Notes under the pieces: generated by a model
What the model was told of the DNA's origin: nothing
The model's database searches: none
The model's input: the letters and a program-made list of their open reading frames with translations, nothing else
Part shown: in pieces, positions 3,167-26,991 of the stretch
Numbering within the stretch: the first letter of the stretch is position 1
How the letters are laid out: every line of letters starts with the position of its first letter
Source: Actinomycetes bacterium
GTDB taxonomy: Bacteria; Actinomycetota; Coriobacteriia; Anaerosomatales; JAJZPX01
Direction of reading: 5' to 3'
Length of the DNA stretch: 26,991 bases
NCBI GenBank assembly: GCA_021811025.1
Contig: JAJZPX010000001.1
Location: forward strand, 1-26,991
Program-made: the position numbers and the translations under genes

Positions 3167-3634
3167 ATGCCGCGCGACACCAAGCTGATAGCGACCAACA
3201 AGAAGGCGTACCACGACTACTTCGTGGACGAGACCTTCGAGACGGGCATCGCGCTGACGGGCACGGAGGTGAAGTCGCTGCGTGAGAACGGCGCGTCGCT
3301 GCGCGACAGCTTCGCGTCGGTGCGCAAGGGCGAGGTGTGGCTGAACAACGTCCACATCTCGCCGTACAGCCACGGCAACCGCAGCAACGTCGACCCCGAC
3401 CGGCCGAGGAAGCTGCTGCTGCACAAGAAGGAGATCCGCTACCTCGTCGGCAAGACGAAGGAGCGCGGGTACACGCTCGTGCCGCTCAAGCTGTACTTCA
3501 GCGGGGGCAACCTCGTGAAGGTCGAGCTCGGGCTGGCGCGAGGCAAGAAGCTCTACGACAAGCGCGAGGCCATTGCCGAGAGGGATCAGAAGCGCGAGGT
3601 CGAGCGCGCGCTGCGCGAGCGCGCCAAGGAGTAG
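3167..3634 (+). CDS. smpB: SsrA-binding protein SmpB
   Basis: Motifs [41 protein letters not shown] and [16 protein letters not shown]. The ssrA gene is nearby. Confidence 0.98.
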
Positions 3635-4181: not shown

Positions 4182-4542
4182 GGGGGCGACTGGATTCGAC
4201 ACGGCAGTCTTGAGGGGAGAAGCAGGCCGAGGTCTCCTCGCCTCGTTAAACAGGGGTAAAGACGCTCAAGCGTCGACAACGATCTTGCTCTCGCTGCCTA
4301 GCCCTAGCTAGCTCCAGCGACGCGCCCGGCCCATGAGAGGGCCCGATAGCCGGTAGCGCGCCATCCAGGGCTCTACCAAGCGGCTGACGACGGTATGCCG
4401 CGAGGGAACGCGAACCCGTCATGGCGCCAGGACGCTTGCCGCGACGTTGTCCTGACCGCCGAGACTCACGTCGCGGCTGAGCCTGGAGATGCTCCCCAGG
4501 GGGTTGTCGTGGACCGGAGTTCGATTCTCCGCGCCTCCACCA
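4182..4542 (+). ncRNA. ssrA: Transfer-messenger RNA (tmRNA), 361 nt, tag ending ...DNDLALAA
   Basis: The 5' GGGGGCG-ACTGGATTCGAC pairs with 3' CGCCTCC-A-CCA, including the G3:U alanine identity pair. T arm CGGAG-TTCGATT-CTCCG. Internal tag frame 4272-4301 ends GCT CTC GCT GCC TAG with a second in-frame TAG. smpB lies upstream. Confidence 0.96.
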
Positions 4543-6939: not shown

Positions 6940-9121
6940 CGCCGCTCACCAACTCCCTCAGCAGCTCGCGGACTTCCCCCACGGAGTCCAGGCTGAACTT
7001 CGCTCTCGACGGTCCGATTCCGACCTTGATCGAGGTTGCCCAATCCGGCAGCACCGAGAACACGTCTTCGTCCGTTCGGTCGTCGCCGAGCGACAGCACG
7101 AAGTCCCAGCCGTCGCTCTCCAGCCACTTCAGAGCTCCGCGCCCCTTGTCGATGCTGCTGCTCTTGACCTCGATGACCTTGTTGCCCGGGAGCACCCCGA
7201 GGTTCTGGTTCGCCGTGAGGTGTGTGAGCGAGTCCTGCAGCTCGCGCGATCGAACCTGGGCTAGGGCCGGGTCCGTTCGCCGGTAGTGCCATGCGAGAGA
7301 GAAGTCCTTCTCCTCGACGAAGCTCCCGGGGGTGCGGTCGACGTACTGGTCGAGGATGGGCCGGATCTCGGCCTTCCACGCGTCGTCGAGCGACTCGGTC
7401 ATGCGCCACTCGCCTGCGCGCTCCCGCACCCACGCGCCGTGCTCGGCGATGAGCCCGATGTCGAGCTCGCCGAGCCAGCGCTCCAGCCGCCGCCGGTCGC
7501 GTCCGGAGACGATCACGACCTCGTTGGCTGCATCGCTCGCGATCTCGCGGAGCAGCGCGACCAGCTCGGGATCCGGGCGGAGCTTCTCGATCCGGGCCGA
7601 GAACGGCATCAGCGTGCCGTCGTAGTCGAGGAGCAGCAGCCGGCGGCGCGTCTGGCGGTAGTCCCACACGAGGAACTCGCGGGCGCGCGGCGTCAGCTTG
7701 CGCGCGTTGAGATGCCGTTGCACCCGCTTGATAGCACCGAGCTGATCGATGAAGTCCGACGCCCAGCGCTCGACGTCGTAGTCCTCGAGGCGCCGCTGCA
7801 TGAGCGCGAGGCGCTCCGTCTGCTCCTCGTCGGCCATCTCGAGGGCTTCCTCGATCGCGTCGGCCAGCTCCTCGCGGTTGTTGGGGTTGACCACGATCGC
7901 CTCACCCATCTCCATCGCCGCGCCCGCCATCTCGGACAGGATCAGGACTCCCTTATCCCCGCTCTTGGCAGCGACGAACTCCTTCGCGATGAGGTTCATC
8001 CCGTCGCGCAGCGGAGTGACCATCGCGATGTCGGCGGCGACGTACAGCGCGACGAGGTCCTTGAAGGGCAGCGACCGGTAGAGGTACCTCACCGGCGTCC
8101 AGTCCATCGTCGCGTGCTCCCCGTTGATCCGCCCGATCAGCTCGTCCACCTGCTGTTTCAGCTCGCGGTAGTGCTCGACGCGGGTGCGCGAGGGCACGGC
8201 GACGAGCAGCAGGTCCACGCGCTCGCGCTGCTCGGGGTGGCGGCGGAGGAAAAGGTCGAACGCCTCGAGACGCTGCACGATCCCCTTCGTGTAGTCGAGG
8301 CGGTCGACGGACAGGATGATCTTGCGCTCGCCCGACTTGCGGCGGATCCGGGTCGTCTCGCCCTGCACCTCGGCCGAGCGGGCGGAGTCCGCGAATCGGC
8401 GGAAGTCGATCCCCATCGGGAAGGCGTCCACCTTGACGACCCGGTCGATCGTGGTGATCTGCCCGAAGAGGTGCTCGTAGCCGGTGAGGCGAATCGCGGA
8501 GTCCAGGTAGTGACGCGCGTAGTCGTACGTGTGGAAGCCGATGAGGTCCGCGCCGAGCATCCCCGTCAGCAGCTCGCGGCGCCACGGCAGCATCCGGAAC
8601 ACCTCGAACGTCGGGAACGGGATGTGCAAGAAGAAGCCGATGCTGGCTTCGGGCAACCGATCGCGGACCATCCCCGGCACCAGCATCAGGTGGTAGTCGT
8701 GGACCCAGATCGTGTCGCCGGCCCGGGCCGCCGCAAGCACCGCCTCGGCGAAGCGCCGGTTCACCCGCACGTACGCCTGCCACGTCGAGGAGTCGAAGAC
8801 CGCGTACTGTGTGAACTGGTGGAACGTCGGCCACAGCGTCTTGTTCGCGAAGCCGTGGTAGTAGCCCCGCACGTCCGCGTCCGACAGGAAGACCGGATAC
8901 GCGGAGTACTCACCTTCGAGCTGTCGCGCGATCTCCGCGCGTTCCGTCGTGCCGGTCCGCTCGGGGACGTCGGCCCACCCGATCCACGCGGCGTCGTATT
9001 CCTTGTAGAACGAGGCGAGGCCGGTGGCGAGCCCTCCGACGCTTTGCGCGAAGGAGATTCCCTCTCGGCGGCGGTCGATCGTGACGGGCAGGCGGTTGGA
9101 CACGATGAGTAGTCTGCTCAC
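6932..9121 (-). CDS. otsAB: Bifunctional trehalose-6-phosphate synthase/phosphatase (OtsA-OtsB fusion, 729 aa)
   Basis: GTG at 9121 gives MSRLLIVSNRLPV. GT20 motifs GGLATGL, WVHDYHL, GFFLHIPFP, DRLDYTKGI and TPLRDGMNLIAKEF. HAD domain LLLDYDGTL, SGRDR, AEHGAW and LGDDRTDEDVF. Confidence 0.95.
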   Translation of the reverse strand: MSRLLIVSNRLPVTIDRRREGISFAQSVGGLATGLASFYKEYDAAWIGWADVPERTGTTERAEIARQLEGEYSAYPVFLSDADVRGYYHGFANKTLWPTFHQFTQYAVFDSSTWQAYVRVNRRFAEAVLAAARAGDTIWVHDYHLMLVPGMVRDRLPEASIGFFLHIPFPTFEVFRMLPWRRELLTGMLGADLIGFHTYDYARHYLDSAIRLTGYEHLFGQITTIDRVVKVDAFPMGIDFRRFADSARSAEVQGETTRIRRKSGERKIILSVDRLDYTKGIVQRLEAFDLFLRRHPEQRERVDLLLVAVPSRTRVEHYRELKQQVDELIGRINGEHATMDWTPVRYLYRSLPFKDLVALYVAADIAMVTPLRDGMNLIAKEFVAAKSGDKGVLILSEMAGAAMEMGEAIVVNPNNREELADAIEEALEMADEEQTERLALMQRRLEDYDVERWASDFIDQLGAIKRVQRHLNARKLTPRAREFLVWDYRQTRRRLLLLDYDGTLMPFSARIEKLRPDPELVALLREIASDAANEVVIVSGRDRRRLERWLGELDIGLIAEHGAWVRERAGEWRMTESLDDAWKAEIRPILDQYVDRTPGSFVEEKDFSLAWHYRRTDPALAQVRSRELQDSLTHLTANQNLGVLPGNKVIEVKSSSIDKGRGALKWLESDGWDFVLSLGDDRTDEDVFSVLPDWATSIKVGIGPSRAKFSLDSVGEVRELLRELVSGDA

Positions 9122-9261
9122 GTGAGCGAGCCCTGCCTTTCGGTCGTGCTTCCTAGATTCCCGAAGGCGTGGAGCCGGTAACCGGCGGGCGTGGGCGTGC
9201 TCCTCGTCCGGGGCGTCGAGGCGAAGATGCGCCTCCCGTGCGCGCGTCGGGCCGCCGCCTA

Positions 9262-9267
9262 TATAAT
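9262..9267 (+). promoter_or_regulatory. Consensus -10 (TATAAT) upstream of the 9321 lipoprotein gene
   Basis: A perfect TATAAT inside an AT-rich patch (TATATAATT) in the divergent intergenic region. It might also serve the minus strand. Confidence 0.55.
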
Positions 9268-9320
9268 TGCTGTCGAGGTGCTCGAGCGGGCCGGGTGACG
9301 GGATTGGGGAGAGGTCGGAC

Positions 9321-10205
9321 ATGGATCGACGCGCGATCGTCGTCGGGGGCGTGACTTGCGCGGTGCTGCTGTCCGCGATCGCGTGCTCCCCCCTCTCGCC
9401 GACGGTCGTGACCCACGACATCCGCGTGCCCCTCGCCGCCGAGCGCTTCGCGGACGTCGGCATCGCCGTGACGACCGCGGACGTGCGGCTTTCCGGCGCG
9501 GCGGCCGATCTCGTCGAAGGCTCCGCCACCTACCCGGCGTCGGACGGGAAGCCGGAGACGTCGACGTCATCCCGCGAGTCGACCGCGGGCGGCGTCGCGG
9601 CGTTCGCCGTCAGCCAGGGCCCGGTCTCGCCCGCGTCGGGCAAGCGCTTGATCGACCTCCGGTTGAACGGGGGCCTGCCGCTCGATCTGAACGTCACGAA
9701 CGGGAGCGGCAACTCCGATCTCGACCTGACTCTGGTCGACGTCCAGGAGCTGAAGGTCAACGCGGACAGCGGGAACGCCTCCGTCAAGCTGACCGGCCCG
9801 CACCCCAGCCTGTCGCACGCGTCGTTCGCCTTCGGCAGCGGCACCGCGTCCATCACGGCAAACGGCGAGTACCCGGCGCTCGAGGGCTTCGAAGTCGACT
9901 CCGGCAGCGGTGCCGTCTCGATCGATCTCTCCGGCACCTGGCGCAAGAGCTTCACGGCACGCGTTCGTGCGAAGTCGGGGAACGTGACGCTGACGCTCCC
10001 GAGGGGTGCGAACATCGCCGTTCGCGGCAGCGTGGCTTCGGGCAAAGTCGCCGAGCCCGGGTTCGCTCGTTCCCGGATGCCGACGGACCGCCCGGGCGCC
10101 GTGTTCCTTCGGCGAGCGGCGGACAACCCCTCGGACTTCACGCTCGGGATCGAGGTCGACCTCGGAAGCGGGACTCTGACGCTGAGGGTCCCGGAGAAGA
10201 CGTAG
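9321..10205 (+). CDS. Lipoprotein with repeated beta-strand (toast-rack/DUF4097-like) domain (294 aa)
   Basis: ATG 9321 after GGGGAGAGG. Signal peptide with lipobox LSAIAC. Repeated [ND]xGSG-x-[hydrophobic]-x-[hydrophobic] units (TNGSGNSDLDL, ADSGNASVKL, FGSGTASITA, DSGSGAVSIDL, AKSGNVTLTL, DLGSGTLTL). Confidence 0.75.
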   Translation: MDRRAIVVGGVTCAVLLSAIACSPLSPTVVTHDIRVPLAAERFADVGIAVTTADVRLSGAAADLVEGSATYPASDGKPETSTSSRESTAGGVAAFAVSQGPVSPASGKRLIDLRLNGGLPLDLNVTNGSGNSDLDLTLVDVQELKVNADSGNASVKLTGPHPSLSHASFAFGSGTASITANGEYPALEGFEVDSGSGAVSIDLSGTWRKSFTARVRAKSGNVTLTLPRGANIAVRGSVASGKVAEPGFARSRMPTDRPGAVFLRRAADNPSDFTLGIEVDLGSGTLTLRVPEKT

Positions 10206-10210
10206 CTCCT

Positions 10211-11947
10211 TCAGTCCCCGCCGGGCGCGGAGCCGTCGGCCTCCGGCGTGGTCTGGCGGGAGTCGCCGAGGCAATAGAGGTATCCGTCGCGGCACGCCAC
10301 GTACACGCGTCCCTTCCACACGATCGGCGTCGCCTCGAAGGGCCCCTGTGCCTCGAACGTCGCCACCTCGGTCACGCCGGTGAACCATCGCCCGCCGGTC
10401 CGGCTGCCGAGCCACACTCCTTGCGCGTTCTTCGGCCGCCTCGAGCGGAAGTCGATGCGATACAAGTGAACCTTCTTGTCGTACCCGGCGGCGATGATGT
10501 AGTCGTCCACGATGATCGGCGTGGATATCGAGCCGCCGATCTGCGCCTTGAACACCTGCTTCGGCGTCTGGTACCGCTCTCCGCGAGGCCCGGCGGCGGT
10601 CTTGCCCGACAGCTCGTCCTGCGAGACCACGTAGAGGAAGCCGTCGACTGAGTTGAACGCGGCGAGCGCAGGCCGCGTGCCGTCCCCGTCGTAGGTGTCG
10701 TTGATCGCGACGGAGCCGATGACGCCGCCGGCCCACTCGTCGATGCCGTTGTCCTCCGTCGGGAACCACCACACCACCGCGTCCTTCGGCGGCCTCGTCG
10801 CGTCGAGCATGAAGACCCCCCCGTGTGCGACGTACTGGCGCTCGGTGCCGATCAGCAGCTTCCCGTCCCTGCGTACGACCGGTGTGGAGTCGAAGTCGCA
10901 TCCCACCTTGAAGTCCCAGAGCACCGAGAGGTCGTTCGGAGAGAGCGCATAGACGTGACCGGACCCGGTGGCGACGTAGAGGCGCCCCGAGTCGTAGCTG
11001 GGAGACGACTCGATGCACAGGTTGCTCCCGCCCGGTTCGCCGCCGTGCGACTTCACGTCCGCGGGGTCCCAGAGCTCCCGCGAGCGCGCTGCCTCCTCAG
11101 GCCGCCGATACGCCCCCCAACGCGCGGTCCGCGACGGATCGAGCTTGTAGACGTAGCCCGGCTCGACCGCTTCGTACAGCGCTCCGTCGATCGACAGCCC
11201 GGACGCGTCCACGTCGCGGCTGTAGTTGGCCGTGCGCGGGACGGGCATGCGCCACAGCTCCTTGCCGTCGCCGAAGGCCACGGCGCGGTAGCTCGCGATT
11301 CCGGGATCGTCGAGCGCCTTGCCGAACCCGCGCCGCGAGCCCGCGGTGACGATGAAGCGGTCGTCGTCTCCGGTGGCGCCGGGATTCGGGAAGACGGTGT
11401 TGGTGGACTTGACGACGTCGTCGAAGGCGTACTCCCAGACGGTGCCGCCGGTCGCCGCGTCGTAGCGGCGCAGCTTGTGATCGTAGCCACCGATCAGTAG
11501 CGACAGCTCGCCCTGGTCGCGCACGAGAGTGGGCTGCCCGGTCCAGCCCGCACCCGACCAGATCACCGCCTTGCCGTCCTCCTTGCGGTTCGTCCAGCCC
11601 GATCCCATGCGTGCCTTCCAGATCAGCTCCAGCTTCTCCGGGACCGGCCCCTTGCCGTAGAAGCGCCGCTGCGCGTTCCCGAGGAACGTCCCGATCTTGA
11701 CGCCGTCGGCGGAATCGGGAGCAGCGGACGGCTGGGCGAGCGCGCGAGCGGGCGGGGGCGTCCGCTCGGCCGGCTGGAGCCGCTCGACGCCCCAGACGGC
11801 AGCGGAGACGAGCAGCGCCGCGGCCGCCAGAGTGCGCAGCAGGCGGAGGTTGCGGCGCAACCGGGCAAGCCGGCGAGCGCCGGGAGGCAAGGGGCGCTGG
11901 GGCGGCGGCCCCGGCGGATGGGGGGCTGTGGGGGACGGTTTCGGCAC
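10211..11947 (-). CDS. Membrane-anchored PQQ-like beta-propeller repeat protein (578 aa)
   Basis: Pro/Arg-rich N-terminus, one TM segment (LAAAALLVSAAVWGV), then WD-like propeller repeats (DAATGGTVWEY, KELWRMP, SSPSYDSGRLYVAT, LSVLWDFKV, STPIIVDDYII, ATPIVWKGRVYVACRDG). Start is GTG at 11947 or 11950; 11947 is favoured by promoter spacing. Confidence 0.8.
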   Translation of the reverse strand: MPKPSPTAPHPPGPPPQRPLPPGARRLARLRRNLRLLRTLAAAALLVSAAVWGVERLQPAERTPPPARALAQPSAAPDSADGVKIGTFLGNAQRRFYGKGPVPEKLELIWKARMGSGWTNRKEDGKAVIWSGAGWTGQPTLVRDQGELSLLIGGYDHKLRRYDAATGGTVWEYAFDDVVKSTNTVFPNPGATGDDDRFIVTAGSRRGFGKALDDPGIASYRAVAFGDGKELWRMPVPRTANYSRDVDASGLSIDGALYEAVEPGYVYKLDPSRTARWGAYRRPEEAARSRELWDPADVKSHGGEPGGSNLCIESSPSYDSGRLYVATGSGHVYALSPNDLSVLWDFKVGCDFDSTPVVRRDGKLLIGTERQYVAHGGVFMLDATRPPKDAVVWWFPTEDNGIDEWAGGVIGSVAINDTYDGDGTRPALAAFNSVDGFLYVVSQDELSGKTAAGPRGERYQTPKQVFKAQIGGSISTPIIVDDYIIAAGYDKKVHLYRIDFRSRRPKNAQGVWLGSRTGGRWFTGVTEVATFEAQGPFEATPIVWKGRVYVACRDGYLYCLGDSRQTTPEADGSAPGGD

Positions 11948-14400: not shown

Positions 14401-16935
14401 TCACGCGTGCTTGACGTAGAAGAAGCGCTTGGCCACCTCGGCCGCTGCGATGTAGAAGACCTGGATGCCGATGAGGGCCACCAGGAAGACGGCGGGTATC
14501 GGCTTGAACCCCAACAGCGGCCCGATCCTCGGCGCGTACGGGAGCAGCAGCGTGATCACGACGACGGCCGCGGTGGCCAGCGAGAGGTAGGCGCTCGGCC
14601 TCGAGCGCCAGAACACACGGCGGGTGCGGATGACGAGCACGATGAGCGACGCGGTGAACACGTTCTCGACCCACCATCCCGTGTGGAACTCCACCTCGCC
14701 CGCGTGCAGCAGGAGCAGGAGCACGCCGAACGTGAGGTAGTCGCACGCCGAGTTGATCGGCCCGAACACCACCATGAAGTCCCGCAGGAAGCGCACGTTC
14801 CACCGCCGAGGGCGGTCGACGAGCTCGGGGTCCACGGCGTCCGTCGAGATCGTCATCGCCGGCAGGTCGGTCAGCAAGTTGCCGAGGAGTATCTGGGTGG
14901 GCAGCAGCGGCAGGAACGGCAGGAAGAGCGACGCTCCCGCCATAGAGACCATGTTGCCGAAGTTCCCGCTGATCGACATGTAGATGTACTTCAGCGTGTT
15001 CGCGAACGTCGCCCGTCCCTCGGCCACCCCCTGCCTCAGCACGCCGAGGTCCTTCTCGAGCAGCACGATGTCGGCCGCCTCCTTCGCCACGTCGACGGCG
15101 CTGTTCACGGAGATGCCGACGTCCGCCACGTAGAGGGCCGAGGCGTCGTTGATCCCGTCGCCCAGGTAGCCGACGGCGTGCCCCGCGCGCTTCAGCGCCC
15201 GGATGATGTCCTCCTTCTGGTTCGGCTCGACCTCCGCGAAGATGTCGACGTCCATCACGCGCCGCGTCAGCGCGGTCTCCGTCGTGCGATGCAGCTGCCC
15301 GCCCGTCATGATGCGAGGCTTCGGCAGGCCGAGCTGCTCGTCGACGGTCGCGGCGATGAGCGCGTTGTCGCCCGTGATGACCTTCAGCGTGATCCCGAGG
15401 TCGCGCAGCTGGCGCACCGTCTCCGTCACGCCCTCCTTCGGGGGATCGAACAGGACGAGGACGCCGACGAAGACCATGTCGCGCTCGTCGTCCTTCTCGA
15501 TCGAGTCTCGGTCGATCTCGCGCACCGCCACCCCCAGGGTCCGGTAGCCCTGCGACGACAGGTCCTGGTAGAGGCGCTCCAGCCGTCCCGTGACCTCCTG
15601 GTCCAGCTGCCGCGGCGACCCCGGCTCGCCTGCCCGCGTGCAGACCTCGAGCGTCTTGCGCAGCGAGCCCTTCGTCACCATGAGCCGCTCGCCGTCCTTG
15701 GCGACCAGCACCGACAGCCGCTTGCGCACGAAGTCGAACGGCTCCTCGTCGAGCTTCCGCCACCCGGTGAGGTCGAGCTTCACGGACGAGCGGATCGCGT
15801 CGTCGATCGGGTCCGAGAAGCCGGACTCGAAGGCGGAGTTGAGGTACGCGTAGAAGCGCACCTGCTCGCTGTCCTTGCCCTCGACGTCTAGCGCGGAGCG
15901 CAGCCGGACGATCCCTTCGGTGAGCGTCCCGGTCTTGTCCGAGCACAGGATGTCCATGGAGCCGAAGTTGTCGATGGACGACAGCTTCTTGACGATGACC
16001 TTCGACTCCGCCATGCGCTGGGCCCCTCTGGCGAGGTTGACGGTGACGATCGCGGGCAGCAGCTGGGGCGTGATGCCGATCGCGAGGGCGAGGGAGAACT
16101 CGAGGCTCGTGAGCACCGGCTTCTGCAGGTAGACGTTCACGGCGAAGATCGCGATCACAATGACCAGCGCGACCTGCACCAGGAAGTAGCCGAAGCGCCG
16201 CAAGCCGCGCTCGAACTCGGTCTCCTCCGCCCGTTCGGTCAGGCGCCGCGACACCTTCCCGAGCTCGCTCGCCGTCCCCGTCGCCACGACCAGCGCCCTG
16301 CCGCTCCCAGAGGTGATGTGCGTGCCCATGAAGAGGACGTTTGTCCTCCTCGCGAGAGGCGTGTCCTCCGGCAGGATTCCCGGGCTCTTCTCGACCGGGA
16401 AGGTCTCTCCCGTCAGCACCGCCTCGTCGGCGTAGAGGTCCTTCGCCTCGATCACCACCGCGTCCGCCGGGATGCCGGCCCCGGCCGAGAGCACGATGAC
16501 GTCGCCGGGCACGACGTCCGCGACGGGGACGTCGCGCTCCACCCCGTCGCGCACCACGCGTGCCTTCACCTCGACGATCGCGAGCAGCTTCCGCACGGCG
16601 TCGTTGGCGCCCCGCTCCTGCCAGAACGAGAGGAGCCCGCTCGCGGCCACGATGACCAGGATGATCGTCGCGTCCTGCGGGTCCCCAAGGAACCCGGAGA
16701 GTACGGCCGCGAACACCAGCACTAGGATGATCGGGTTGCGGAACTGGGACAGCAGCAGCCGCACGCTCGTGAGACGGCGGGTGACGGCGATGCGGTTCGG
16801 GCCGTGGGCCGCCAGCCGGTCCGAGGCCTGGGCCGTGGTGAGGCCGGCGGTGCCCGCCCCAAGGCCGTGCGCCACGTCCTCGGCGGGCATCGTCCAGAAC
16901 GCGCCTTGCGTCTGCGCCGGCTCCGGCAATCGCAT
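14401..16935 (-). CDS. mgtA: Magnesium-translocating P-type ATPase (MgtA/P3B-like, 844 aa)
   Basis: Motifs LTGETFPVEK, TPQLLPAI, MDILCSDKTGTLTEG, FDFVRKRLSV, DPPK, KVITGDN and GDGINDA. M5 KYIYMSISGNFGN and M6 NLLTD match the MgtA pattern. Confidence 0.85.
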   Translation of the reverse strand: MRLPEPAQTQGAFWTMPAEDVAHGLGAGTAGLTTAQASDRLAAHGPNRIAVTRRLTSVRLLLSQFRNPIILVLVFAAVLSGFLGDPQDATIILVIVAASGLLSFWQERGANDAVRKLLAIVEVKARVVRDGVERDVPVADVVPGDVIVLSAGAGIPADAVVIEAKDLYADEAVLTGETFPVEKSPGILPEDTPLARRTNVLFMGTHITSGSGRALVVATGTASELGKVSRRLTERAEETEFERGLRRFGYFLVQVALVIVIAIFAVNVYLQKPVLTSLEFSLALAIGITPQLLPAIVTVNLARGAQRMAESKVIVKKLSSIDNFGSMDILCSDKTGTLTEGIVRLRSALDVEGKDSEQVRFYAYLNSAFESGFSDPIDDAIRSSVKLDLTGWRKLDEEPFDFVRKRLSVLVAKDGERLMVTKGSLRKTLEVCTRAGEPGSPRQLDQEVTGRLERLYQDLSSQGYRTLGVAVREIDRDSIEKDDERDMVFVGVLVLFDPPKEGVTETVRQLRDLGITLKVITGDNALIAATVDEQLGLPKPRIMTGGQLHRTTETALTRRVMDVDIFAEVEPNQKEDIIRALKRAGHAVGYLGDGINDASALYVADVGISVNSAVDVAKEAADIVLLEKDLGVLRQGVAEGRATFANTLKYIYMSISGNFGNMVSMAGASLFLPFLPLLPTQILLGNLLTDLPAMTISTDAVDPELVDRPRRWNVRFLRDFMVVFGPINSACDYLTFGVLLLLLHAGEVEFHTGWWVENVFTASLIVLVIRTRRVFWRSRPSAYLSLATAAVVVITLLLPYAPRIGPLLGFKPIPAVFLVALIGIQVFYIAAAEVAKRFFYVKHA

Positions 16936-16954
16936 CCCCTCCCGACGCCGCCGT

Positions 16955-19402
16955 CTACCCGCTCGTAGCCATCGCGCGACGCGCCCTCCGGCCCGCCCCG
17001 GCGAACGCCTTCCTCGCCTCGATCGCGGAGAGGACGGCGACCGTGAACGCAGCGTCCGCCGCCAGCCAACCGGGCTCGACGGGGAAGAGGTTGACGAGCG
17101 TGCCGAGGCGCGGCGTGTACACGGTGACGATCAGGAATGCGAGGGCGGCCAGCGCCCAGACGTCGATCACCCGGTTCCTCAGCGGGCCGATCTCGAGCAG
17201 CGTCTCGTCGTCCGAGCGCGAGAAGAAGGCGAGCGTGACGTGGCCGACGATCCAGCTTGCGAAGGCGAGCGTCCGCACGGACGCCGGGTCGAACCCCTGG
17301 GCGCCGGCGAACAGGTACACCGCCGTCACGGCTCCGAACAGCAGCACCGCCTTGGCCGCCAGGTCGGCCAGCTGCCACCGGTCGAAGATGTCCGCGGTCC
17401 GCGGCGGGGGCCGCCGGGTGTAGATGTCGGGCTCCGGCGGCTCGGCGACGAACCCAGCCGAGGCCGCGAGGTCCATGAATAGCTCGAGAAGGATGATCTG
17501 GATGGGCGAGAACGGCAGCGGCAGCCCGGCGAGCGCCGGCAGCAGGAAGATCAGGATGAGCGCGAGCTTGACCGAGAGGTAGTACTTCACGCCCTTTCGC
17601 AGGTTGTCGAAGAAGGTCCTGCCGGTGAACACCCCTTCGGCGATCGTGACGTAGTCGTCGTTCGCCAGCACGACGTCCGCCGCCTCGCGAGCGACGTCCG
17701 TCCCGCGCTGCCCCATCGCGAGCCCGATGTCCGCGGCCTGCAGCGCGAGCGCGTCGTTCACGCCGTCCCCCGTAACGGCGACGACGTCGCCGTCCTCCTG
17801 GAGCGCCTCGACGATGCGGTACTTGTCGTCGGGGGTCGTTCGAGCGAACACGCTCACCTCTCGCACGAGCGAGCGCAGCGCCCGCGCGTCGAGGCCCTCG
17901 AGCTCCGGCCCGACCGCCACTCGCGCCGAGGCGGGCGCGATGCCCACCTCGCCGGCGATCCTCGCGGCCGTCGACGGGTGATCGCCGGTGACCATGATCG
18001 TGCGGATCCCCGCGGCGGCGGCGCGCTCGATGGTCTCTGCCACGCCCGGTCGCGGCGGGTCGGAGAAGGCGATCAGGCCGGCGAGCGTCATGCCGGTCTC
18101 GAGCTCGGGGAATGGGTCGTCACGGCGTTCCCGCGGCACGTGCCGTGTCGCCACGGCGATCACGCGGTAGCCGGCCGAGGTCTCCTCGTCGAGCGCTTCG
18201 CGGGCGCCGGCGGGCACGTCCGCGCACTTCGCGAGCACCTCCTCGGGCGCGCCGGTGACGTAGAGCGCGAACCCGGCGGAAGCCTCGCGCAGCGCCGCCT
18301 TCGTCTTGCCCCCGTCGCCGAGCTCCCGCTCGCGGACGATCGCGCGATGCCCGCGCGCCGACGCCTCGCGCAGCGCCCTGTCGATCGGAGTGTCCTCGTA
18401 CGGCGCGACGGCCGCGGCCGCGTCGGCCAGCACCTCGTCGCGCCGCTCCCGAGGGAACACGTCCGCGACGGTCATCCGGCTCTCAGTGATCGTGCCGGTC
18501 TTGTCTGTCACGATCGCCGTCACCGAGCCCATCGTCTCGGCGGCGGCGAGCCTCTTCACCAGGAACCCCCGCTTCGAGAGCCGGTAGCTGCCCAGGCCGA
18601 GCACCATCGTGATGATGATCGGCAGTTCCTCCGGGATCGTGGCGAACGACAGCGAGAGGCCGGTGAGGATCATGAGCCCGAGCGGCTGACCGCGCAGGAC
18701 GCCCACCGCCGGGATGAGCACGGAGAAGAAGACGGCGACGTACACGAGCTTGCCCGCCAGCGACCGCATCGCCTTCTGCAGCGGCGTCCGGGGGGCCTTG
18801 ATCGCGGCGGCCTTCGCCGCGACCTGCCCGAGACGGGTCTCCGCGCCGGTCGCGGTCACCACGGCCTCGGCCTCTCCCGCGAGCACGGCCGTCCCCGCGA
18901 AGAGCGGATCGCCCACCGTTCTGGCGACCGGATACGACTCGCCGGTGATCGAGGACTCGTCGACGGAAAGGCCCGTCGTCGTCGCCCGCACCGAGGCGTC
19001 CGCGGCGACGCGCGTCCCAGCCGCGAGGACGAGCACGTCGCCGGTCACGACGTCGGACGCCGGGACGTCGCGGGGCGCTCCGTCGCGGAGCACCCGGGCC
19101 TCGGGCGCGGTGAGCTCGGTGAGCGCGGAGATCGCTCTCTTGGCCCGGTACTCGTTCCATACTTCCGCGAGCACGAGCAACGCGATCACCACGAAGATCG
19201 TCGCCGCGTCCTCGATCCTGCCCGAGAGGCTGTACGCGACGCCGACGACGAGAAGCAGCAGGATCATCGGCTCGGTGATCTCCTCGCGAGCGATCGCGAA
19301 GAAGCGCACCGGCGCGGGACGCACGACGACGTTGGGACCCTGAGCGCCGAGGCGTCTCGCCGCCTCGGCGGAACTCAGGCCCCCGTTCGCGTCTTCCGGC
19401 AT
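16955..19402 (-). CDS. Cation-transporting P-type ATPase (P2-like, unassigned substrate, 815 aa)
   Basis: Motifs DESSITGES, IPEELP, DKTGTITE, DPPRPG, MVTGDHP and GDGVNDA. AGGAAGG SD before the ATG. Confidence 0.9.
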   Translation of the reverse strand: MPEDANGGLSSAEAARRLGAQGPNVVVRPAPVRFFAIAREEITEPMILLLLVVGVAYSLSGRIEDAATIFVVIALLVLAEVWNEYRAKRAISALTELTAPEARVLRDGAPRDVPASDVVTGDVLVLAAGTRVAADASVRATTTGLSVDESSITGESYPVARTVGDPLFAGTAVLAGEAEAVVTATGAETRLGQVAAKAAAIKAPRTPLQKAMRSLAGKLVYVAVFFSVLIPAVGVLRGQPLGLMILTGLSLSFATIPEELPIIITMVLGLGSYRLSKRGFLVKRLAAAETMGSVTAIVTDKTGTITESRMTVADVFPRERRDEVLADAAAAVAPYEDTPIDRALREASARGHRAIVRERELGDGGKTKAALREASAGFALYVTGAPEEVLAKCADVPAGAREALDEETSAGYRVIAVATRHVPRERRDDPFPELETGMTLAGLIAFSDPPRPGVAETIERAAAAGIRTIMVTGDHPSTAARIAGEVGIAPASARVAVGPELEGLDARALRSLVREVSVFARTTPDDKYRIVEALQEDGDVVAVTGDGVNDALALQAADIGLAMGQRGTDVAREAADVVLANDDYVTIAEGVFTGRTFFDNLRKGVKYYLSVKLALILIFLLPALAGLPLPFSPIQIILLELFMDLAASAGFVAEPPEPDIYTRRPPPRTADIFDRWQLADLAAKAVLLFGAVTAVYLFAGAQGFDPASVRTLAFASWIVGHVTLAFFSRSDDETLLEIGPLRNRVIDVWALAALAFLIVTVYTPRLGTLVNLFPVEPGWLAADAAFTVAVLSAIEARKAFAGAGRRARRAMATSG

Positions 19403-21083: not shown

Positions 21084-21833
21084 TTGGCACTCGAGGGCAA
21101 CCTGAGGGACTTCTCGCTTGCGGACATGTTCCGCCTCCTCGCCTCCGGCGCGAAGACGGGCACCCTCTACCTCGAGAGCGACGACGCCCAGGGCAAGGTG
21201 TGCTTCAAGAAGGGGCGCGTCTTCTTCGCCTCGTCCAACTGGAACCGCGAGTCCCTCGGCCGAAGGCTCGTGAAGGCCGGCGTGATCACGGAGAAGCAAC
21301 TGCGCCAGGCGCTCGGGCTGCAGAAGATCCAGAAGAAGGAGAAGGCGGGCAGGCGGCTCGGCCAGATCCTGGTGGACGAGGGCTACATGGACGGGAAGGT
21401 CCTCGAGAACTTCATCCAGGAGCAGATCAACGACACGCTGTTCGACCTCTTCCGCTGGGAGGACGGCGAGCTGCGCTTCGAGGCGGACGAGGTCGCCGAG
21501 GACGAGGACATCGGCGTGTCCGTGTCGGTCGAGAACATCATCATGGAGGCGTCGAGGCGCCTCGAGATGTGGAACCGCATCCGTCAGAAGATCCCCACGA
21601 TGCACACCGCCTTCGTCATGGCCGGCGCCCCCGGCGACAAATCGATGGAGATCCACCTGAAGCCGAAGGAGTGGATGCTCCTGTGTTACCTGCACGGCGG
21701 ACGTTCCGTGCGCGAGCTCGTGGAGCTCACCGGCTACAACGACTTCGAGACGGCCAAGATCCTGTACGGCATGTACTCGGCCGGGCTGATCGAGAAGGTG
21801 GCCCCCGAGGACGACCGGGCCGCGGAGACATAA
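21084..21833 (+). CDS. DUF4388 (PatA_N/PATAN) domain protein with tandem MshEN-like motif and C-terminal winged helix (249 aa)
   Basis: TTG start 5 nt after GGAGGT gives MALEGNLRDFSLADMFRLLASGAKTGTLYL. Then LGRRLVKAGVIT...RLGQILVDEG, LFDLFRWEDGELRFE, VENIIMEASRRL and a wHTH tail (EWMLL...GGRSVRELV...GLIE). Confidence 0.9.
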   Translation: MALEGNLRDFSLADMFRLLASGAKTGTLYLESDDAQGKVCFKKGRVFFASSNWNRESLGRRLVKAGVITEKQLRQALGLQKIQKKEKAGRRLGQILVDEGYMDGKVLENFIQEQINDTLFDLFRWEDGELRFEADEVAEDEDIGVSVSVENIIMEASRRLEMWNRIRQKIPTMHTAFVMAGAPGDKSMEIHLKPKEWMLLCYLHGGRSVRELVELTGYNDFETAKILYGMYSAGLIEKVAPEDDRAAET

Positions 21834-21846
21834 GAGCTGCCGCAAG

Positions 21847-23319
21847 ATGGCCGAGGCGAACCGACTCAACAAGGACCTGACTCTCGAGGAGTTCCGAGGC
21901 TTTCGCGACTACGTCCTGAAGCACTCGGGCATCTTCCTCGAGGACACGAAGATGGACAGCCTGCGGATCTCGCTCGTCGCGCGGGCGACTCGCCTCAACC
22001 TCGTGTCGTTCGCCGACTACATGTCGATCCTCCGCGCGGACGACAAGGAGTTCAACGAGCTCCTCAACCTCATCACGATCAACGAAACCAGCTTCTTCCG
22101 CTTCCCCCAGCAGTTCGACGCGCTCCGTAACCGCGTGCTGCCCGAGATCCTCGAGTCGAAGCTCTCGACCAACAGGAACGTGCGGATCTGGTCGGCGGGG
22201 TGCTCCACGGGCGAGGAGCCCTACAGCATCGCGATGACGCTCGCCGAGTCCGGGCTGGAGGGCCTGGGGTGGAGGCCGCACGTTCTCGGCACCGACGTCT
22301 CCACGAAGGCGCTGGCGAAGGCGCGCGAGGGGGTCTACCAGCGCAAGGGGCTCTCGGGGATGCCCGAGGAGATCGTCGAGCGCTACTTCGAGGCGGACGG
22401 GGAGCGCGTGCGGATGGGCCCGGCGGCCCGGCGAATGGTGGACTTCCAGTACCACAATCTCATCAAGGAGCCGTATCCCATCGAGATGATGGCGGGATGG
22501 GACGTCATCTTCTGCCGCAACGTCACGATCTACTTCAAGCTCGAGTCGACGCGTCGCGTCGTCCACAACTTCTTCGAGAGCCTCAACGACGGCGGGTACC
22601 TGTTCGTCGGCCATTCCGAGACGCTCACGAGCATCTCGGACGAGTTCGAGCCTGTGGAGGCGGGCGAGGTCTTCCTGTACCGCAAGCCGCGCCACGGCCG
22701 CGCGTTCAGCGCTCCAGCTCCACGCCTCGACGCGCAGCCGGCGCACGGGCAGCGCGCGAAGGCGGCGGGGCGGCAGCAGGAGCCTCCGAAGAAGCACCAG
22801 CGCGCCGACGACCTCGCGGCCGAGGCGGCGGAGCTGTTCGTGGAGCGGCACCCCGAGAAGGTGCTGGCGCTCGTCGACGAGATGCTCACGATGGAGCCCC
22901 ACGACGCGCAGGCGCACGTCCTTGCGGCGCACGCGTACGCGGACCTGGGCAACTACGACGCCGCGCTCGCGGCGTGCACCCGCGCTCTCGCGATCGACCC
23001 TCTGCTGCCCGTCGCGCGCTACATCCTCGGCCTCATCCAGCAGCGGCAGGGCGACGTGGTCGGCGCCGTGTCCGAGTTCAAGCGCACGATCTACATCGAC
23101 CCCGATTTCGCTCTCGCGCACCTGAACCTCGGGACGATCTACAAGTCCCAGGGCGACTGGGAGGCGGCGGCGCGGGAGTACGAGAACACCATCCGGGCGC
23201 TGTACAAGAACCCGACCGGATCGTGGCGCGAGTTCCTCGGCGGATTCCAGGCGGACCTGCTGCTCAAGACGTGCGAACGAAGTCTGCTAGAGTGCAGGAA
23301 GGCGATGGGAATCGCCTAA
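21847..23319 (+). CDS. cheR: Chemotaxis methyltransferase CheR with C-terminal TPR repeats (490 aa)
   Basis: Motifs INETSFFR, RIWSAGCSTGEEPYSIAM, GTDVS, FQYHNL, DVIFCRNVTIYF and GGYLFVGHSE, followed by TPRs (AHVLAAHAYADLG, ARYILGLI, FALAHLNLG). Confidence 0.95.
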   Translation: MAEANRLNKDLTLEEFRGFRDYVLKHSGIFLEDTKMDSLRISLVARATRLNLVSFADYMSILRADDKEFNELLNLITINETSFFRFPQQFDALRNRVLPEILESKLSTNRNVRIWSAGCSTGEEPYSIAMTLAESGLEGLGWRPHVLGTDVSTKALAKAREGVYQRKGLSGMPEEIVERYFEADGERVRMGPAARRMVDFQYHNLIKEPYPIEMMAGWDVIFCRNVTIYFKLESTRRVVHNFFESLNDGGYLFVGHSETLTSISDEFEPVEAGEVFLYRKPRHGRAFSAPAPRLDAQPAHGQRAKAAGRQQEPPKKHQRADDLAAEAAELFVERHPEKVLALVDEMLTMEPHDAQAHVLAAHAYADLGNYDAALAACTRALAIDPLLPVARYILGLIQQRQGDVVGAVSEFKRTIYIDPDFALAHLNLGTIYKSQGDWEAAAREYENTIRALYKNPTGSWREFLGGFQADLLLKTCERSLLECRKAMGIA

Positions 23320-23377: not shown

Positions 23378-23755
23378 ATGGCAGCGCGGATACTGGCGGT
23401 GGACGACAGCCCTACCATCCTCGAGATGATCAAGGCGATCCTCGTCGCCGGCGGCTACGAGGTAATCACCGCAGCCGACGGCCAGGAAGCCCTCAACACG
23501 GCGCGTGCCGAGAAGCCCGACCTGATCCTGCTCGACGTCATGCTCCCGAAGCTCGACGGCTATCGCGTCTGCCGCCTGCTCAAGTTCGACCAGAACTACA
23601 AGCACATCCCGATAATCATGCTGACCGCGAAGACCGAGGAGCAATCGATGGCGACCGGGCTTCGCACGGGTGCGGACCAGTACCTCACGAAGCCGATCGA
23701 GCCGGAGGTGCTCCTCTCGTCCGTCGCGCAGGAGCTCGGCAAGGTCGCAGGGTAG
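23378..23755 (+). CDS. Single-domain response regulator (CheY/PilH-like REC, 125 aa)
   Basis: ILAVDDSP, PDLILLDVMLPKLDG, IPIIMLTAK and YLTKP are all intact. GGGAGGGAG SD before ATG 23378. Confidence 0.93.
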   Translation: MAARILAVDDSPTILEMIKAILVAGGYEVITAADGQEALNTARAEKPDLILLDVMLPKLDGYRVCRLLKFDQNYKHIPIIMLTAKTEEQSMATGLRTGADQYLTKPIEPEVLLSSVAQELGKVAG

Positions 23756-23762
23756 GCGCGTC

Positions 23763-25637
23763 GTGTCCGAAGCGGCCTCGATAACGACCCGGGTCCTCGA
23801 TACGCTAGCCAACGCCGGGCTGGTCACGCTCGAGCAGCTCACCGTCATCAACGAGGCGGCGGCGGGCGGCCGGGGCGCGGGTGAGGTGCTCCTGGAGCGC
23901 GGCCTCGTCACGGCTCGCGACGTCGGCACGGTGCTCGAGGACGAGATGGGCGTGCCCCGCGTCGACCTCTCGAGCTACACGCCCGACGACACCGCGCTCG
24001 CGCTCGTGCCCGCCTCGGTCGCGCGTGAGCGCCGCATCCTGCCGCTGTTCGAGATCGAGGGCACGCTCACGGTCGCGATCGGCGACCCCATGGACGTCTT
24101 CTCGCTCGACGACGTCGCGAGGCAGCTGGGCGTCGAGCTCGATCCGGTGCTGGCGGAGCCGGCAGACCTGCTCGGGGCGATCGCGCAGTACTACGACGTC
24201 CGCGTCGAGGAGGATGCGGCGGGCGCGCTCGACGCCGCGGCGTCCGGGCCGCCTGCCGTGGAGCTCGAGCCCGAGCGTGCCGTGGAGGTGCCGGCCCCCA
24301 TGCCCCGCGAGGAGATGCCCCCGCCTCCGCCGTCGTCCGAGGAGCTGCTCGCGCAGCTCCCGCCGCGGGACGCCTCCGACGCTCCCGCTCCCGCCTCGGC
24401 CGAGGCGCACACGATGGAGGATGTCGCGGCGGCGGAGGTGACCGCCGCAGCCGGTCGCATCGACCTGGACGTGCTGGCCGTGGCGGACTCGCGCAAGATC
24501 GCCGTCCTGGTGGCCGACATCCTCGAGGACGCCGCCGGGCGCGGGGCGAGCCAGATCCATCTCCTCCCGTACAAGGAGGATTTCTTCCTCGTCTACCGGA
24601 TCGACGGCCGTCTCGAGAAGATCGCGACGGCCCCGCTCTCCATGCAGGGCGCGCTGGTCGACGCGTTCAAGTCGTTCGCGAAGCTGGGCTCGGTCCCCGC
24701 ATCGCTCCCCGCGCTCGGCCGCGTGCACTCGCGCCTCGGCGACTCGGAGACGGTGCTCGTGGTCTCCGCCGTGCCCACGATCGCCGGTCAGCGCGTCGTG
24801 ATCGGCCTCGCGGCGCCGCGAGCCAACCTGCCCGTGCTGGGAGACCTCGGGATGACCGAGGCCGAGGCGCGGGCGCTCGGTGCGATGGTCGAGCGGGGGA
24901 GGGGCATCCTCCTGCTTTGCGCGCCGGTGGCGGCGGGCCGGAGCACGACCTACTACGCGCTGCTGAGCCTCGCGGCAGCGGCGGGCAAGACGGCGTACTC
25001 GGTCGAGCGCTCGATCGACTTCGAGATCCCCGCGGTGGCACAGGTGATGGTGACGCCGGGCTCACCGGCAGGGGCTGCCGCGCACATAGCCGCGGGGCTG
25101 CGACAGGACACGGACGTCATCGCCATCGACGGCCTTCAGGCGGCCGAGGAGATACACCTCGCGGTGGAGGCGGCCGGGCTGGGCAAGCTGGTGATCGCGA
25201 CGTTCGCGGCCGGCGACGTCGTGTCCGGGGTGCGGCGCATGCTCGACCTCGGCGCGGAGCCGGTCAGCCTCGCCGCAGCGCTCACCCTCGGCGCGGGGCA
25301 GCGCCTCATGCGGACGAACTGCCCGGACTGCAGCGTCGAGCAGCGCAGCCCGCTCGCCGGCAAGATACCGGGCATCCCCTCGGACTTCGTGGACCGCGCG
25401 GGCGCGGGTTGCCCGAGGTGCGCGAAGACCGGCTTCCGCGGCATGACCGGCGTGTTCGAGGTCCTGCCGTTCACGGAGTCGATGCGCTCGGTGGTGGCGC
25501 ACGACGCGTCGCTGTCGGAGCTGGCGTCCGCCGCGAAGGCGGCGGGGATGCGGCCGCTGCTGGTTTCAGGGCTCGACAAGGCGCGCGCGGGGGTCGTCAG
25601 CCTGGCCGAGCTGGACAGAGTGCTGAGGTTGACGTAG
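23763..25637 (+). CDS. GspE/PilB-family protein with degenerate ATPase motifs (predicted pseudo-ATPase, 624 aa)
   Basis: Degenerate MshEN-like N-terminus, T2SSE_N domain (VPRVDL...ARERRILPL...VAIGDP), ASQIH, YRIDG, RQDTDVI, CPDC/CPRC, GFRGMTGVFEVL and GVVSLAELDRV. Walker A reads APVAAGRST. Confidence 0.88.
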   Translation: MSEAASITTRVLDTLANAGLVTLEQLTVINEAAAGGRGAGEVLLERGLVTARDVGTVLEDEMGVPRVDLSSYTPDDTALALVPASVARERRILPLFEIEGTLTVAIGDPMDVFSLDDVARQLGVELDPVLAEPADLLGAIAQYYDVRVEEDAAGALDAAASGPPAVELEPERAVEVPAPMPREEMPPPPPSSEELLAQLPPRDASDAPAPASAEAHTMEDVAAAEVTAAAGRIDLDVLAVADSRKIAVLVADILEDAAGRGASQIHLLPYKEDFFLVYRIDGRLEKIATAPLSMQGALVDAFKSFAKLGSVPASLPALGRVHSRLGDSETVLVVSAVPTIAGQRVVIGLAAPRANLPVLGDLGMTEAEARALGAMVERGRGILLLCAPVAAGRSTTYYALLSLAAAAGKTAYSVERSIDFEIPAVAQVMVTPGSPAGAAAHIAAGLRQDTDVIAIDGLQAAEEIHLAVEAAGLGKLVIATFAAGDVVSGVRRMLDLGAEPVSLAAALTLGAGQRLMRTNCPDCSVEQRSPLAGKIPGIPSDFVDRAGAGCPRCAKTGFRGMTGVFEVLPFTESMRSVVAHDASLSELASAAKAAGMRPLLVSGLDKARAGVVSLAELDRVLRLT

Positions 25638-26129
25638 ATGCCCGAGGCGCTGGAGAGCCATGCCCGGGAGGCGGTCGTCTTCCTTCTCGGAGGGCAGCGT
25701 TACGCGCTGCCCATCGACGCCGTGCAGGAGATCCAGCAGATCGTGGCGATGACGGACGTGCCCGAGTCGGCGCAGGGCGTCATCGGCATGGTGAACCTGC
25801 GCGGCGACGTCATCCCCGCCGTCGATCTCAGGCGGCTCCTCAAGATGGAGGCGCACGCGTTCGACCTGCAGACGCCCATGGTCATCGCGCGCCTGTCGGG
25901 CTCGCTCGTCGCGCTTGTCGTCGACGAGGTCGAGGACGTGGCGGCGCTCCCCGAAGGCTGCATCCAGGGCGCGGGCGAGTTCCTGGAACTGGCGGATCGG
26001 CTCATCGGGGTATGCCGGCTCGAGACGGAGCTCGTGTTCCTGCTCGACCCCGAGGCGCTGCTCGTCCGCGGCGGGGCCGACCGGGGCCGGGCGCAGCCTG
26101 AGCGGCGTTCGCGGAAGAAGGCGCAATGA
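25638..26129 (+). CDS. cheW: Chemotaxis coupling protein CheW (163 aa)
   Basis: VVFLLGGQRYALPIDAVQEI, VPES, GMVNLRGDVIPAVDL and LVVDEV. ATG immediately follows the upstream TAG. Confidence 0.93.
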   Translation: MPEALESHAREAVVFLLGGQRYALPIDAVQEIQQIVAMTDVPESAQGVIGMVNLRGDVIPAVDLRRLLKMEAHAFDLQTPMVIARLSGSLVALVVDEVEDVAALPEGCIQGAGEFLELADRLIGVCRLETELVFLLDPEALLVRGGADRGRAQPERRSRKKAQ

Positions 26130-26680
26130 TGCCGGGCGAACGCATCATGAACGCGGAACGCGGGGATCTTCTCAACGACGTCCAAGGCGTGCTCCGCTGG
26201 CGCGCCGAGTCGCTCGCGGCCGAGCAGCAGGAAGAGGCGGCCGAGGACGCGCTGTCCCTGCTGCTGTTCTCGCTCGGCGAGGAATCGTACGCCGTGCCGA
26301 TCCGGTCCGTGCGCGAGATCTACAACGAGTTCGTGATCACCCCGGTCCCGTGCGTGCCGCAGTTCATCCTCGGAGTGATGAACATCCGGGGCGAGATCGT
26401 GTCGGTGACGGACGTGAAGCAGCTTCTCCGGCTTCCGGCCGGGCAGCCGGACGCGATGTCGCCGGTGATAGTGGTCGAGAACGACGAGTGCTCCACCGCG
26501 CTGCTCGTCGACGAGATCGGCGACATCACCGACGTCCCCGAGAGCGCGCTCGAGGCGCCGGTGGCGACGCTCGACAAGAGCCAGGCCGCGTTCGTGTCAG
26601 GCAGCATCTACGTGGGGGGCAGGCTTGTCGGCCTGCTCGATCTCGAGGCGGTCCTCACGCCGATAGGCGTGGAGGCGTGA
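26126..26680 (+). CDS. cheW: Second CheW with N-terminal helical extension (184 aa)
   Basis: LLFSLGEESYAVPIRSVREI, TPVPCVPQFILGVMNIRGEIVSVTD and LLVDEI. ATGA overlap with the first cheW. Confidence 0.93.
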   Translation: MMPGERIMNAERGDLLNDVQGVLRWRAESLAAEQQEEAAEDALSLLLFSLGEESYAVPIRSVREIYNEFVITPVPCVPQFILGVMNIRGEIVSVTDVKQLLRLPAGQPDAMSPVIVVENDECSTALLVDEIGDITDVPESALEAPVATLDKSQAAFVSGSIYVGGRLVGLLDLEAVLTPIGVEA

Positions 26681-26703
26681 AGTCCAGGGAGGAACGGTAG
26701 ACG

Positions 26704-26991
26704 ATGGGGCTCCTTCAGCAATTCCGCAGCAGGTTCCTCTACAAGTTCTTCGCGGTGAACGCCGGGCTTGTCATCCTGGCGACCGCGCTGCAGGCCGCGG
26801 TCTTCTTCCTCGTGTTCGGCCACGAGATCGGCGGCTCGCAGGAGTTCCTCTCGGAGCTGTGGGTCACGGCCGCCGTGCTGGTCGTGACGCTCGCGCTGTG
26901 GCTGCTCGCGTTCATGCTCGTCGGGAGGCGCTTCATCGAGCCGCTCGGCCACATCTCCGAGTCCGTGAAGGCCGCCTGCCAGGGCGAGATC
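26704..26991 (+). CDS. Membrane protein with 2 TM helices + start of a HAMP domain; probable chemoreceptor (MCP), 3'-truncated
   Basis: Not in the ORF track; translated by hand as MGLLQQFRSRFLYKFFAVNAGLVILATALQAAVFFLVFGHEIGGSQEFLSELWVTAAVLVVTLALWLLAFMLVGRRFIEPLGHISESVKAACQGEI. GGAGG SD upstream, follows two cheW genes. The signalling domain is outside the window, so a kinase cannot be excluded. Confidence 0.7.
   Translation, partial: MGLLQQFRSRFLYKFFAVNAGLVILATALQAAVFFLVFGHEIGGSQEFLSELWVTAAVLVVTLALWLLAFMLVGRRFIEPLGHISESVKAACQGEI

Follow-up and report, generated by a model that had tools for sequence, protein, structure and literature searches.

A degenerate PilB paralogue in a chemosensory operon

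The window analysed here, by which we mean the whole stretch of DNA studied, is the complete 26,991-bp contig C149 (JAJZPX010000001.1) of a 2.14-Mb metagenome-assembled genome (MAG) that is 86% complete and has a GC content of ~69%. Towards its 3' end the window carries the first genes of a chemosensory (che) operon, and one of these encodes a dead paralogue of the type IV pilus ATPase PilB, which we refer to as psPilB. The psPilB open reading frame (23,763-25,637; plus strand, as are all operon genes and motifs below) starts with a GTG codon 7 nt past the stop codon of a gene for a CheY-like response regulator, and comprises 624 codons without internal stops or frameshifts. The assignment was made on the basis of Pfam matches, motif alignment, an AlphaFold2 (AF2) model and Foldseek comparisons.

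The 624-residue protein consists of an MshEN domain (residues 1-147; Pfam match at 62-147, 72 bits), a linker (148-232), an N2D domain (233-358) and a C-terminal domain (CTD, 359-624). It belongs to the T2SSE family, with a PF00437 match over residues 242-619 that covers profile positions 4-370 and scores 192 bits; the genome's three canonical PilB paralogues reach 439-470 bits. On the NCBIfam PilB equivalog model TIGR02538 it scored 280.6 bits, which is far below the cut-off of 675.65. An AF2 model based on an alignment of 78 sequences had a mean pLDDT of 90.3, and its best Foldseek matches were PilF, PilB and GspE (E ~1e-35; template modelling score on the target 0.63-0.73). The 85-residue linker is 59% Pro, Ala or Glu and is predicted to be disordered; among psPilB homologues its length ranges from 45 to 166 residues. 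In two unrelated genomes (locus L047 of G063, 6134-8127, and locus L051 of G153, 7132-10,770), the MshEN and T2SSE parts of psPilB are not in the same frame and the frame changes within this GC-rich linker, which may reflect either a split gene or an assembly error.

We next compared psPilB residue by residue with the Geobacter PilB structures 5zfr and 6olj, using HMMER alignments. The Walker A motif GPTGSGKT is replaced by APVAAGRS (APVAAGRST at 24,921-24,947), thereby departing from the consensus GxxGxGK[ST]. Likewise, the Asp box AEDPVEF has become VERSIDF (VERSID at 25,002-25,019), and the Walker B region at 25,101-25,142 reads RQDTDVIAIDGLQA, a substitution of DPDIIMIGEIRD by DTDVIAIDGLQA. 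The His box TGHLVLSTLH has become LGKLVIATFA and thus lacks both His residues (25,179-25,208), the arginine-finger motif ERRLPQDGR survives as the remnant PASLPALGR (24,696-24,722), and ASDIH has become ASQIH. Retained were YRIDG, the tetracysteine Zn motif CPDC ... CPRC (25,320-25,421), GFRGMTGVFEVL, and the stretch GxxGxxGxFEVL. The four cysteines of this PilB/GspE Zn motif (C520, C523, C550 and C553) are invariant in the alignment of 78 sequences (A1). A first-pass annotation made from the letters alone had reported these same substitutions and retained structural motifs, together with a T2SSE-type fold, a Pro/Ala/Glu linker of ~85 residues, an unbroken frame and a cheW gene abutting psPilB, and our alignments, model and Pfam matches bore it out in each respect. 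Because the Walker A Lys, the Asp box, the Walker B Glu, the His box and the arginine fingers are all lost, psPilB should be unable to work as a motor, and we infer from its motifs that it is non-catalytic.

A point absent from the first-pass annotation is that the N-terminal domain is degenerate as well. The MshEN motif for cyclic di-GMP (c-di-GMP) consists of two tandem 24-residue sequences of the form RLGxx(L/V/I)(L/V/I)xxG(L/V/I)(L/V/I)xxxxLxxxLxxQ (PMC5013675). In psPilB, motif 1 has RVL for RLG and Ala for Gln, while motif 2 is without the Arg and has Glu for Gln. Canonical c-di-GMP binding by psPilB therefore seems unlikely, since both motifs fail even the relaxed version of the published pattern.

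Conservation, selection and origin of psPilB

A search of 5.8 billion proteins listed at least 120 clusters with 57-80% identity to psPilB, and the named sources among the 120 listed clusters were Coriobacteriia or Actinomycetota MAGs. The same degenerate motifs were present in all 120 of these clusters and in deeper orthologues with 44-51% identity. None of the 120 homologues has a Lys at the Walker A Lys position (Arg in 82, Ala in 17, Ser in 14, Gly in 6 and Val in 1), and at the position of the catalytic Walker B Glu we found Gly (75), Ser (18), Ala (18), Pro (7) and, in two cases, Glu. The first Gly of the P-loop is Ala in the core psPilB clade, and replacement of the Asp box, Walker B Glu, His box and arginine fingers extends throughout the psPilB clade. 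Orthologue-level matches were obtained in ~126 of 142 sampled genomes of the GTDB order (OPB41/Anaerosomatales-type MAGs), covering 24 families; the sources were Coriobacteriia, Anaerosomatales and Actinomycetota MAGs plus strain EMTCatB1. In the remaining orders of this class the matches were canonical PilBs with an identity of only ~30%.

To quantify selection we used Nei-Gojobori estimates, which gave omega values of 0.037, 0.066 and at most 0.16 for three close, unsaturated pairs. More distant pairs were discarded as uninformative for dN/dS, because a GC content of ~92% at third codon positions (GC3) makes the proportion of synonymous differences level off at ~0.46-0.50. psPilB evolves faster than the motor itself, as identities among orthologues from one set of genomes are 55-64% for psPilB and 73-80% for canonical PilB, and its pace of change is about that of CheR, CheW and CheA from its own operon.

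The disappearance of every catalytic motif might in principle mark a decaying pseudogene or an annotation artefact. However, more than 120 genomes have an unbroken frame, omega lies between 0.04 and 0.16, the replacement motifs are themselves conserved and the fold is predicted with confidence. We therefore rejected this explanation, to which we assign a negligible probability, in view of the clade-wide motifs, the distribution and the omega values. psPilB thus combines clade-wide loss of catalytic residues with purifying selection, as is expected of a pseudoenzyme. The central proposal of the first-pass annotation, a maintained pseudo-ATPase rather than a pseudogene, holds on four points that it had singled out for checking: the degeneracy is shared across the clade and not private to this copy, the informative pairs show purifying selection, the fold is kept, and the genome has three active-looking PilBs with an intact Walker A motif. 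We regard it as established that psPilB is a maintained pseudo-ATPase encoded in a PATAN-containing, pilus-type chemosensory operon.

A further search of 1.8 billion cluster representatives, of which the best 150 matches were inspected, showed how this family may have arisen. A canonical Walker A motif was present in 127 of these 150 matches, and a few distant relatives, 30-38% identical to psPilB, were partly degenerate. GK[ST] of Walker A is kept in P0140, P0141 and P0178, and the Walker B Asp-Glu pair in P0134, P0136, P0140, P0141 and P0178, but all partly degenerate relatives are without the His box, the arginine fingers and most or all of the Asp box. In a phylogenetic tree all degenerate proteins formed one clade (SH-aLRT 100, stem length 0.86) with the partly degenerate ones in basal positions. 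This topology implies a single origin of the psPilB family followed by stepwise erosion of the catalytic site. The PilBs of the genome itself were placed elsewhere in the tree and are not sister to psPilB, so that a recent duplication of one of them was rejected as its source.

Conservation within psPilB is highest in the CTD core, which houses the dead motifs. Directly beside the drifting catalytic positions, residues P388, V389, G392, S413, E415, Q448-D451, D456, G474, L476 and V477 are invariant. One may ask whether the remodelled pocket still binds a nucleotide or another small molecule without hydrolysis and reports its presence to the pathway. The conservation of the core, the many invariant residues lining the pocket and the retention of GK[ST] and the Walker B Asp-Glu pair in basal relatives are consistent with such a sensor. 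In the core clade, however, the phosphate-binding Lys has given way to Arg, Ala, Ser, Gly or Val, and the Ala in place of the first P-loop Gly likewise speaks against canonical nucleotide binding. A ligand-sensing function is in our estimation very unlikely.

Organization of the chemosensory operon

The first gene of the operon (21,084-21,833, TTG start) encodes PATAN1, a stand-alone PATAN/DUF4388 protein of 249 residues (DUF4388 118 bits, in two stretches). It is followed by genes for a CheR methyltransferase with C-terminal tetratricopeptide repeats (TPR; 21,847-23,319; Pfam CheR 197 bits, CheR_N and TPR families) and for REC, the CheY-like single-domain response regulator of 125 residues (23,378-23,755; Response_reg 104 bits). 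The starts of PATAN1 and REC were set by alignment to orthologues. Downstream of psPilB are cheW1 (25,638-26,129; Pfam CheW 108 bits), of which the ATG directly follows the psPilB stop codon, and cheW2 (26,126-26,680; 116 bits), which overlaps the cheW1 stop by 4 nt. The 5' end of a gene for a methyl-accepting chemotaxis protein (MCP; 26,704-26,991), specifying two transmembrane helices and a very short loop, is cut off by the contig end. The last 349 bp of the window (26,643-26,991) match positions 1-349 of contig C189 at 98.9%, and that contig carries on with the MCP (406 residues), a CheA-CheW-REC hybrid (768 residues) and CheB, in agreement with the gene order in relatives. The assembly break inside the MCP gene is probably due to strain variation. 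Together, the window and the overlapping contig thus contain a complete set of the type IV pilus (Tfp) type, with MCP, CheW, CheA with REC, CheY-like REC, CheR and CheB.

The order PATAN-CheR(TPR)-REC-psPilB-CheW-CheW-MCP-CheA(CheW-REC)-CheB was found in 37 of the 38 loci examined. REC is the most conserved protein of the operon, with 83-87% identity across the order, and PATAN1 shows 80-95%. The operon order also holds for the distant, partly degenerate relatives at 32-38% identity: in those looked up (P0134, P0136, P0140 and P0141) the gene lies directly after REC or directly before two CheW genes. Two long distant contigs (L060 and L061) have the same order from PATAN to CheW, and L061 continues through MCP, CheA and CheB. 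In these low-GC distant operons a 170-residue small GTPase-like gene is located between PATAN and CheR (L060 5529-6044; L061 5526-6038). The L060 copy matches Arf/Roc/Ras (MglA-like), and the L061 copy gave only marginal Pfam matches. This context suggests that psPilB is dedicated to a pilus-type chemosensory operon with a PATAN gene, which is more specific than the scaffold or hexamer poison put forward in the first-pass annotation, where cheW was the only neighbour recorded. One genome (G093) has two full PATAN-to-CheB operons (L050 on C25 and L052 on C12), each with a dead PilB.

Residues ~57-115 of PATAN1 form a helical insertion that resembles two tandem MshEN 24-residue motifs (SLGRRLVKAG... 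and RRLGQILVDEG...Q) with a spacer of 9-10 residues. Comparison of the insertion with the MshEN_N region by hhalign gave a probability of 79% and an E-value of 1.7e-5. We treat this putative MshEN-like insertion as a lead only.

Some genomes deviate from the common pattern. In near-complete genomes without psPilB (G015, G030 and genus g50) PATAN1 is absent too, and only a second PATAN protein, PATAN2, is kept. CheW is missing altogether from G030 and G151, and the che cluster present in G015, G189 and G193 is of another kind. In genome G131, which is 95% complete, no CheW was found, and the ancestral site (L049, C30, 6951-9539) contains exactly PATAN1 followed by an intact psPilB. CheR/REC and the genes from CheW through CheB have been deleted, and the flanking genes (racemase-MBL-RNase PH-Ham1-FTHFS) are the same as those downstream of CheB elsewhere. 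Since just these two genes were retained after the loss of the che genes, PATAN1 and psPilB seem to form a unit that is able to outlive them.

These data bear on another possible role for psPilB, namely as a structural element of the chemosensory array, which it would anchor or shape through contacts with CheW or CheA, for example at the pilus pole, leaving the pilus motor untouched. The location of the gene between REC and two CheW genes would suit such a scaffold, as would the 0-nt gap to cheW1, which suggests co-translation, and the conservation of this position even in distant relatives. Against it stands G131, where psPilB persists beside PATAN1 without any CheW. Unless the G131 copy, which is on a long branch, is decaying, psPilB must therefore be useful beyond the array. 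All in all, we judge a pure array scaffold to be unlikely.

A 152-residue gene upstream of PATAN1 in relatives gave no Pfam match and its neighbour only a weak match to URO-D; both were excluded from the operon. Just upstream of the operon the window contains two tandem P-type cation ATPase genes (14,401-19,402, minus strand), which are syntenic in the closest relative (L011). Elsewhere in the window, a trehalose synthase gene (TreT-type) adjoins a fused trehalose-6-phosphate synthase/phosphatase gene (5734-9529, minus strand), and smpB (3167-3634) is followed by a transfer-messenger RNA gene (4182-4542) specifying the tag peptide VDNDLALAA.

Pilus genes in the lineage

Besides the three PilBs with intact Walker A motifs, the genome encodes PilT-like and Tad ATPases. 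One of the PilB genes, on contig C275 of this genome (L054 10,842-15,597), is followed by a Roadblock/MglB-like gene and then PATAN2. In a single-contig genome from the order the pilus locus (L172, G003:C1:863000-882500) has the order PilB-MglB-like-PATAN2-Ras-like GTPase-PilB-PilT-PilC-pilin-prepilin peptidase, which places a polarity-type module, including a PATAN2 of ~650 residues, between two canonical PilBs. The genome of the window, at 86% completeness, yielded no flagellin and only two MCP genes.

The presence of three canonical PilBs raises the question of whether psPilB mixes into their rings and lowers or gates the ATPase cycle, with the che pathway setting the amount of psPilB available; this develops the second of the two options in the first-pass annotation. 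Consistent with such poisoning or tuning of hexamers, the N2D and CTD folds that build the ring are retained and well conserved. Nevertheless, psPilB shares only ~30% identity with the canonical PilBs encoded in the same genomes and is not their sister in the tree, the arginine fingers of the ring interface are replaced, and the operon partners are signalling proteins with no PilB adjacent. Mixed rings are accordingly an improbable explanation to our mind.

A putative output adaptor of a pilus-type pathway

On balance we think it probable, by a modest measure, that psPilB is a non-catalytic mimic of PilB, which serves as output adaptor of a pilus-type chemosensory pathway and acts via protein contacts. 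Its partner is probably PATAN1, given that PilB1 of Synechocystis is bound by PATAN domains (bioRxiv 10.1101/2021.06.11.447907) and that the PATAN1 and psPilB genes co-occur. The phosphorylated CheY-like regulator would then control psPilB, which might either dock on the pilus platform instead of active PilB or titrate regulators that bind PilB. In either case, the outcome would be that pilus extension or cell polarity is steered. Which proteins psPilB contacts, that the pilus is its target and in which direction it regulates are what we infer from these observations.

Several points weigh against this output-adaptor reading. The binding partners are putative, and in a complex prediction for psPilB, PATAN1 and REC a control with PATAN1 replaced scored equally high, for which reason this prediction was not used for or against any binding. 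That the pilus is the target is suggested by homology and genome content only, indirectly through the PATAN gene of the operon, the pilus locus with PATAN2 and the failure to find a flagellin, and the absence of flagella was judged by one marker in an incomplete MAG. The G131 psPilB, being on a long branch, may be decaying or under relaxed selection. The compression of dS by the 92% GC3 leaves usable omega values from a few close pairs only. Lastly, the pocket that once bound nucleotide is strongly conserved, which could mean ligand binding, something that a pure scaffold model would not foresee.

A more specific form of the idea, doubtful at present but worth stating, is that psPilB acts on the type IV pilus as a clutch or decoy under the control of a signal, and blocks the PilC/PilM docking site to active PilB. 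PATAN1 would load a dead PilB ring or protomer, and the CheY-like regulator in its phosphorylated form would release or engage it. The second-messenger input would have shifted from the N-domain of PilB, which has lost its motif, to the insertion in PATAN1 that resembles MshEN. If true, the chemosensory control of pili would here operate by a new output mechanism.

Irrespective of the precise mechanism, the output-adaptor reading addresses a route, from chemotaxis-like pathways to the type IV pilus motor, of which the understanding is still poor, even for Pseudomonas, Myxococcus and cyanobacteria. The location of a non-catalytic motor copy in a signalling operon, beside a CheY-like regulator and a PATAN protein, points to a link between signal and motor that is concrete and can be tested. 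psPilB would also be a clear bacterial case of a ring-ATPase pseudoenzyme recruited for regulation, and it marks a whole order of abundant, almost uncultured subsurface Actinomycetota (uncultured anaerobic Coriobacteriia).

Comparison with known systems

Full-text literature searches and a recent PilB review gave no description of a PilB or GspE that is dead or degenerate and encoded in a che operon, and nothing relevant on pili and chemotaxis in Anaerosomatales came out of the full-text searches. psPilB shares its domain order with PilB, PilF and GspE (Geobacter PilB 5tsh/5zfr/6olj, Thermus PilF 5oiu/5it5 and Vibrio EpsE 1p9r), namely an MshEN-type N-domain, N2D and a CTD with a tetracysteine Zn motif, and it has the same fold at 30% identity. 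It differs from them in its replaced catalytic motifs, its long disordered linker and its location in a che operon instead of a pilus locus. The match of its N-terminal domain to Pfam MshEN resembles MshE and other MshEN c-di-GMP receptors, but unlike in these receptors the 24-residue motifs do not fit the published relaxed pattern (PMC5013675).

At the level of the pathway, the operon is reminiscent of the cyanobacterial Tax/Pix phototaxis systems, in which the PatA-type PATAN-REC proteins PixG and PixE act on PilB1 and PilC. Both are Tfp-type systems with CheY, CheW, MCP and a CheA-REC hybrid, the operon described here starts with a PATAN gene, and PATAN is known to bind PilB. In contrast to Tax/Pix, the psPilB operon has PATAN and REC as two individual proteins, includes CheR and CheB, and encodes a dead PilB; no such component has been reported for cyanobacteria. 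The Pil-Chp system of Pseudomonas and the Frz system of Myxococcus have two CheW-type adaptors and a CheA-REC hybrid in common with the psPilB operon, and a CheR with TPR is shared with Frz, but neither has a PilB-like protein. Their output is pilus polarity, exerted by CheY-like proteins on the localization of FimL, FimV and PilB or on MglA, MglB and RomR, and MglA/MglB-type genes occur here in the pilus locus of the lineage and in the distant versions of the operon.

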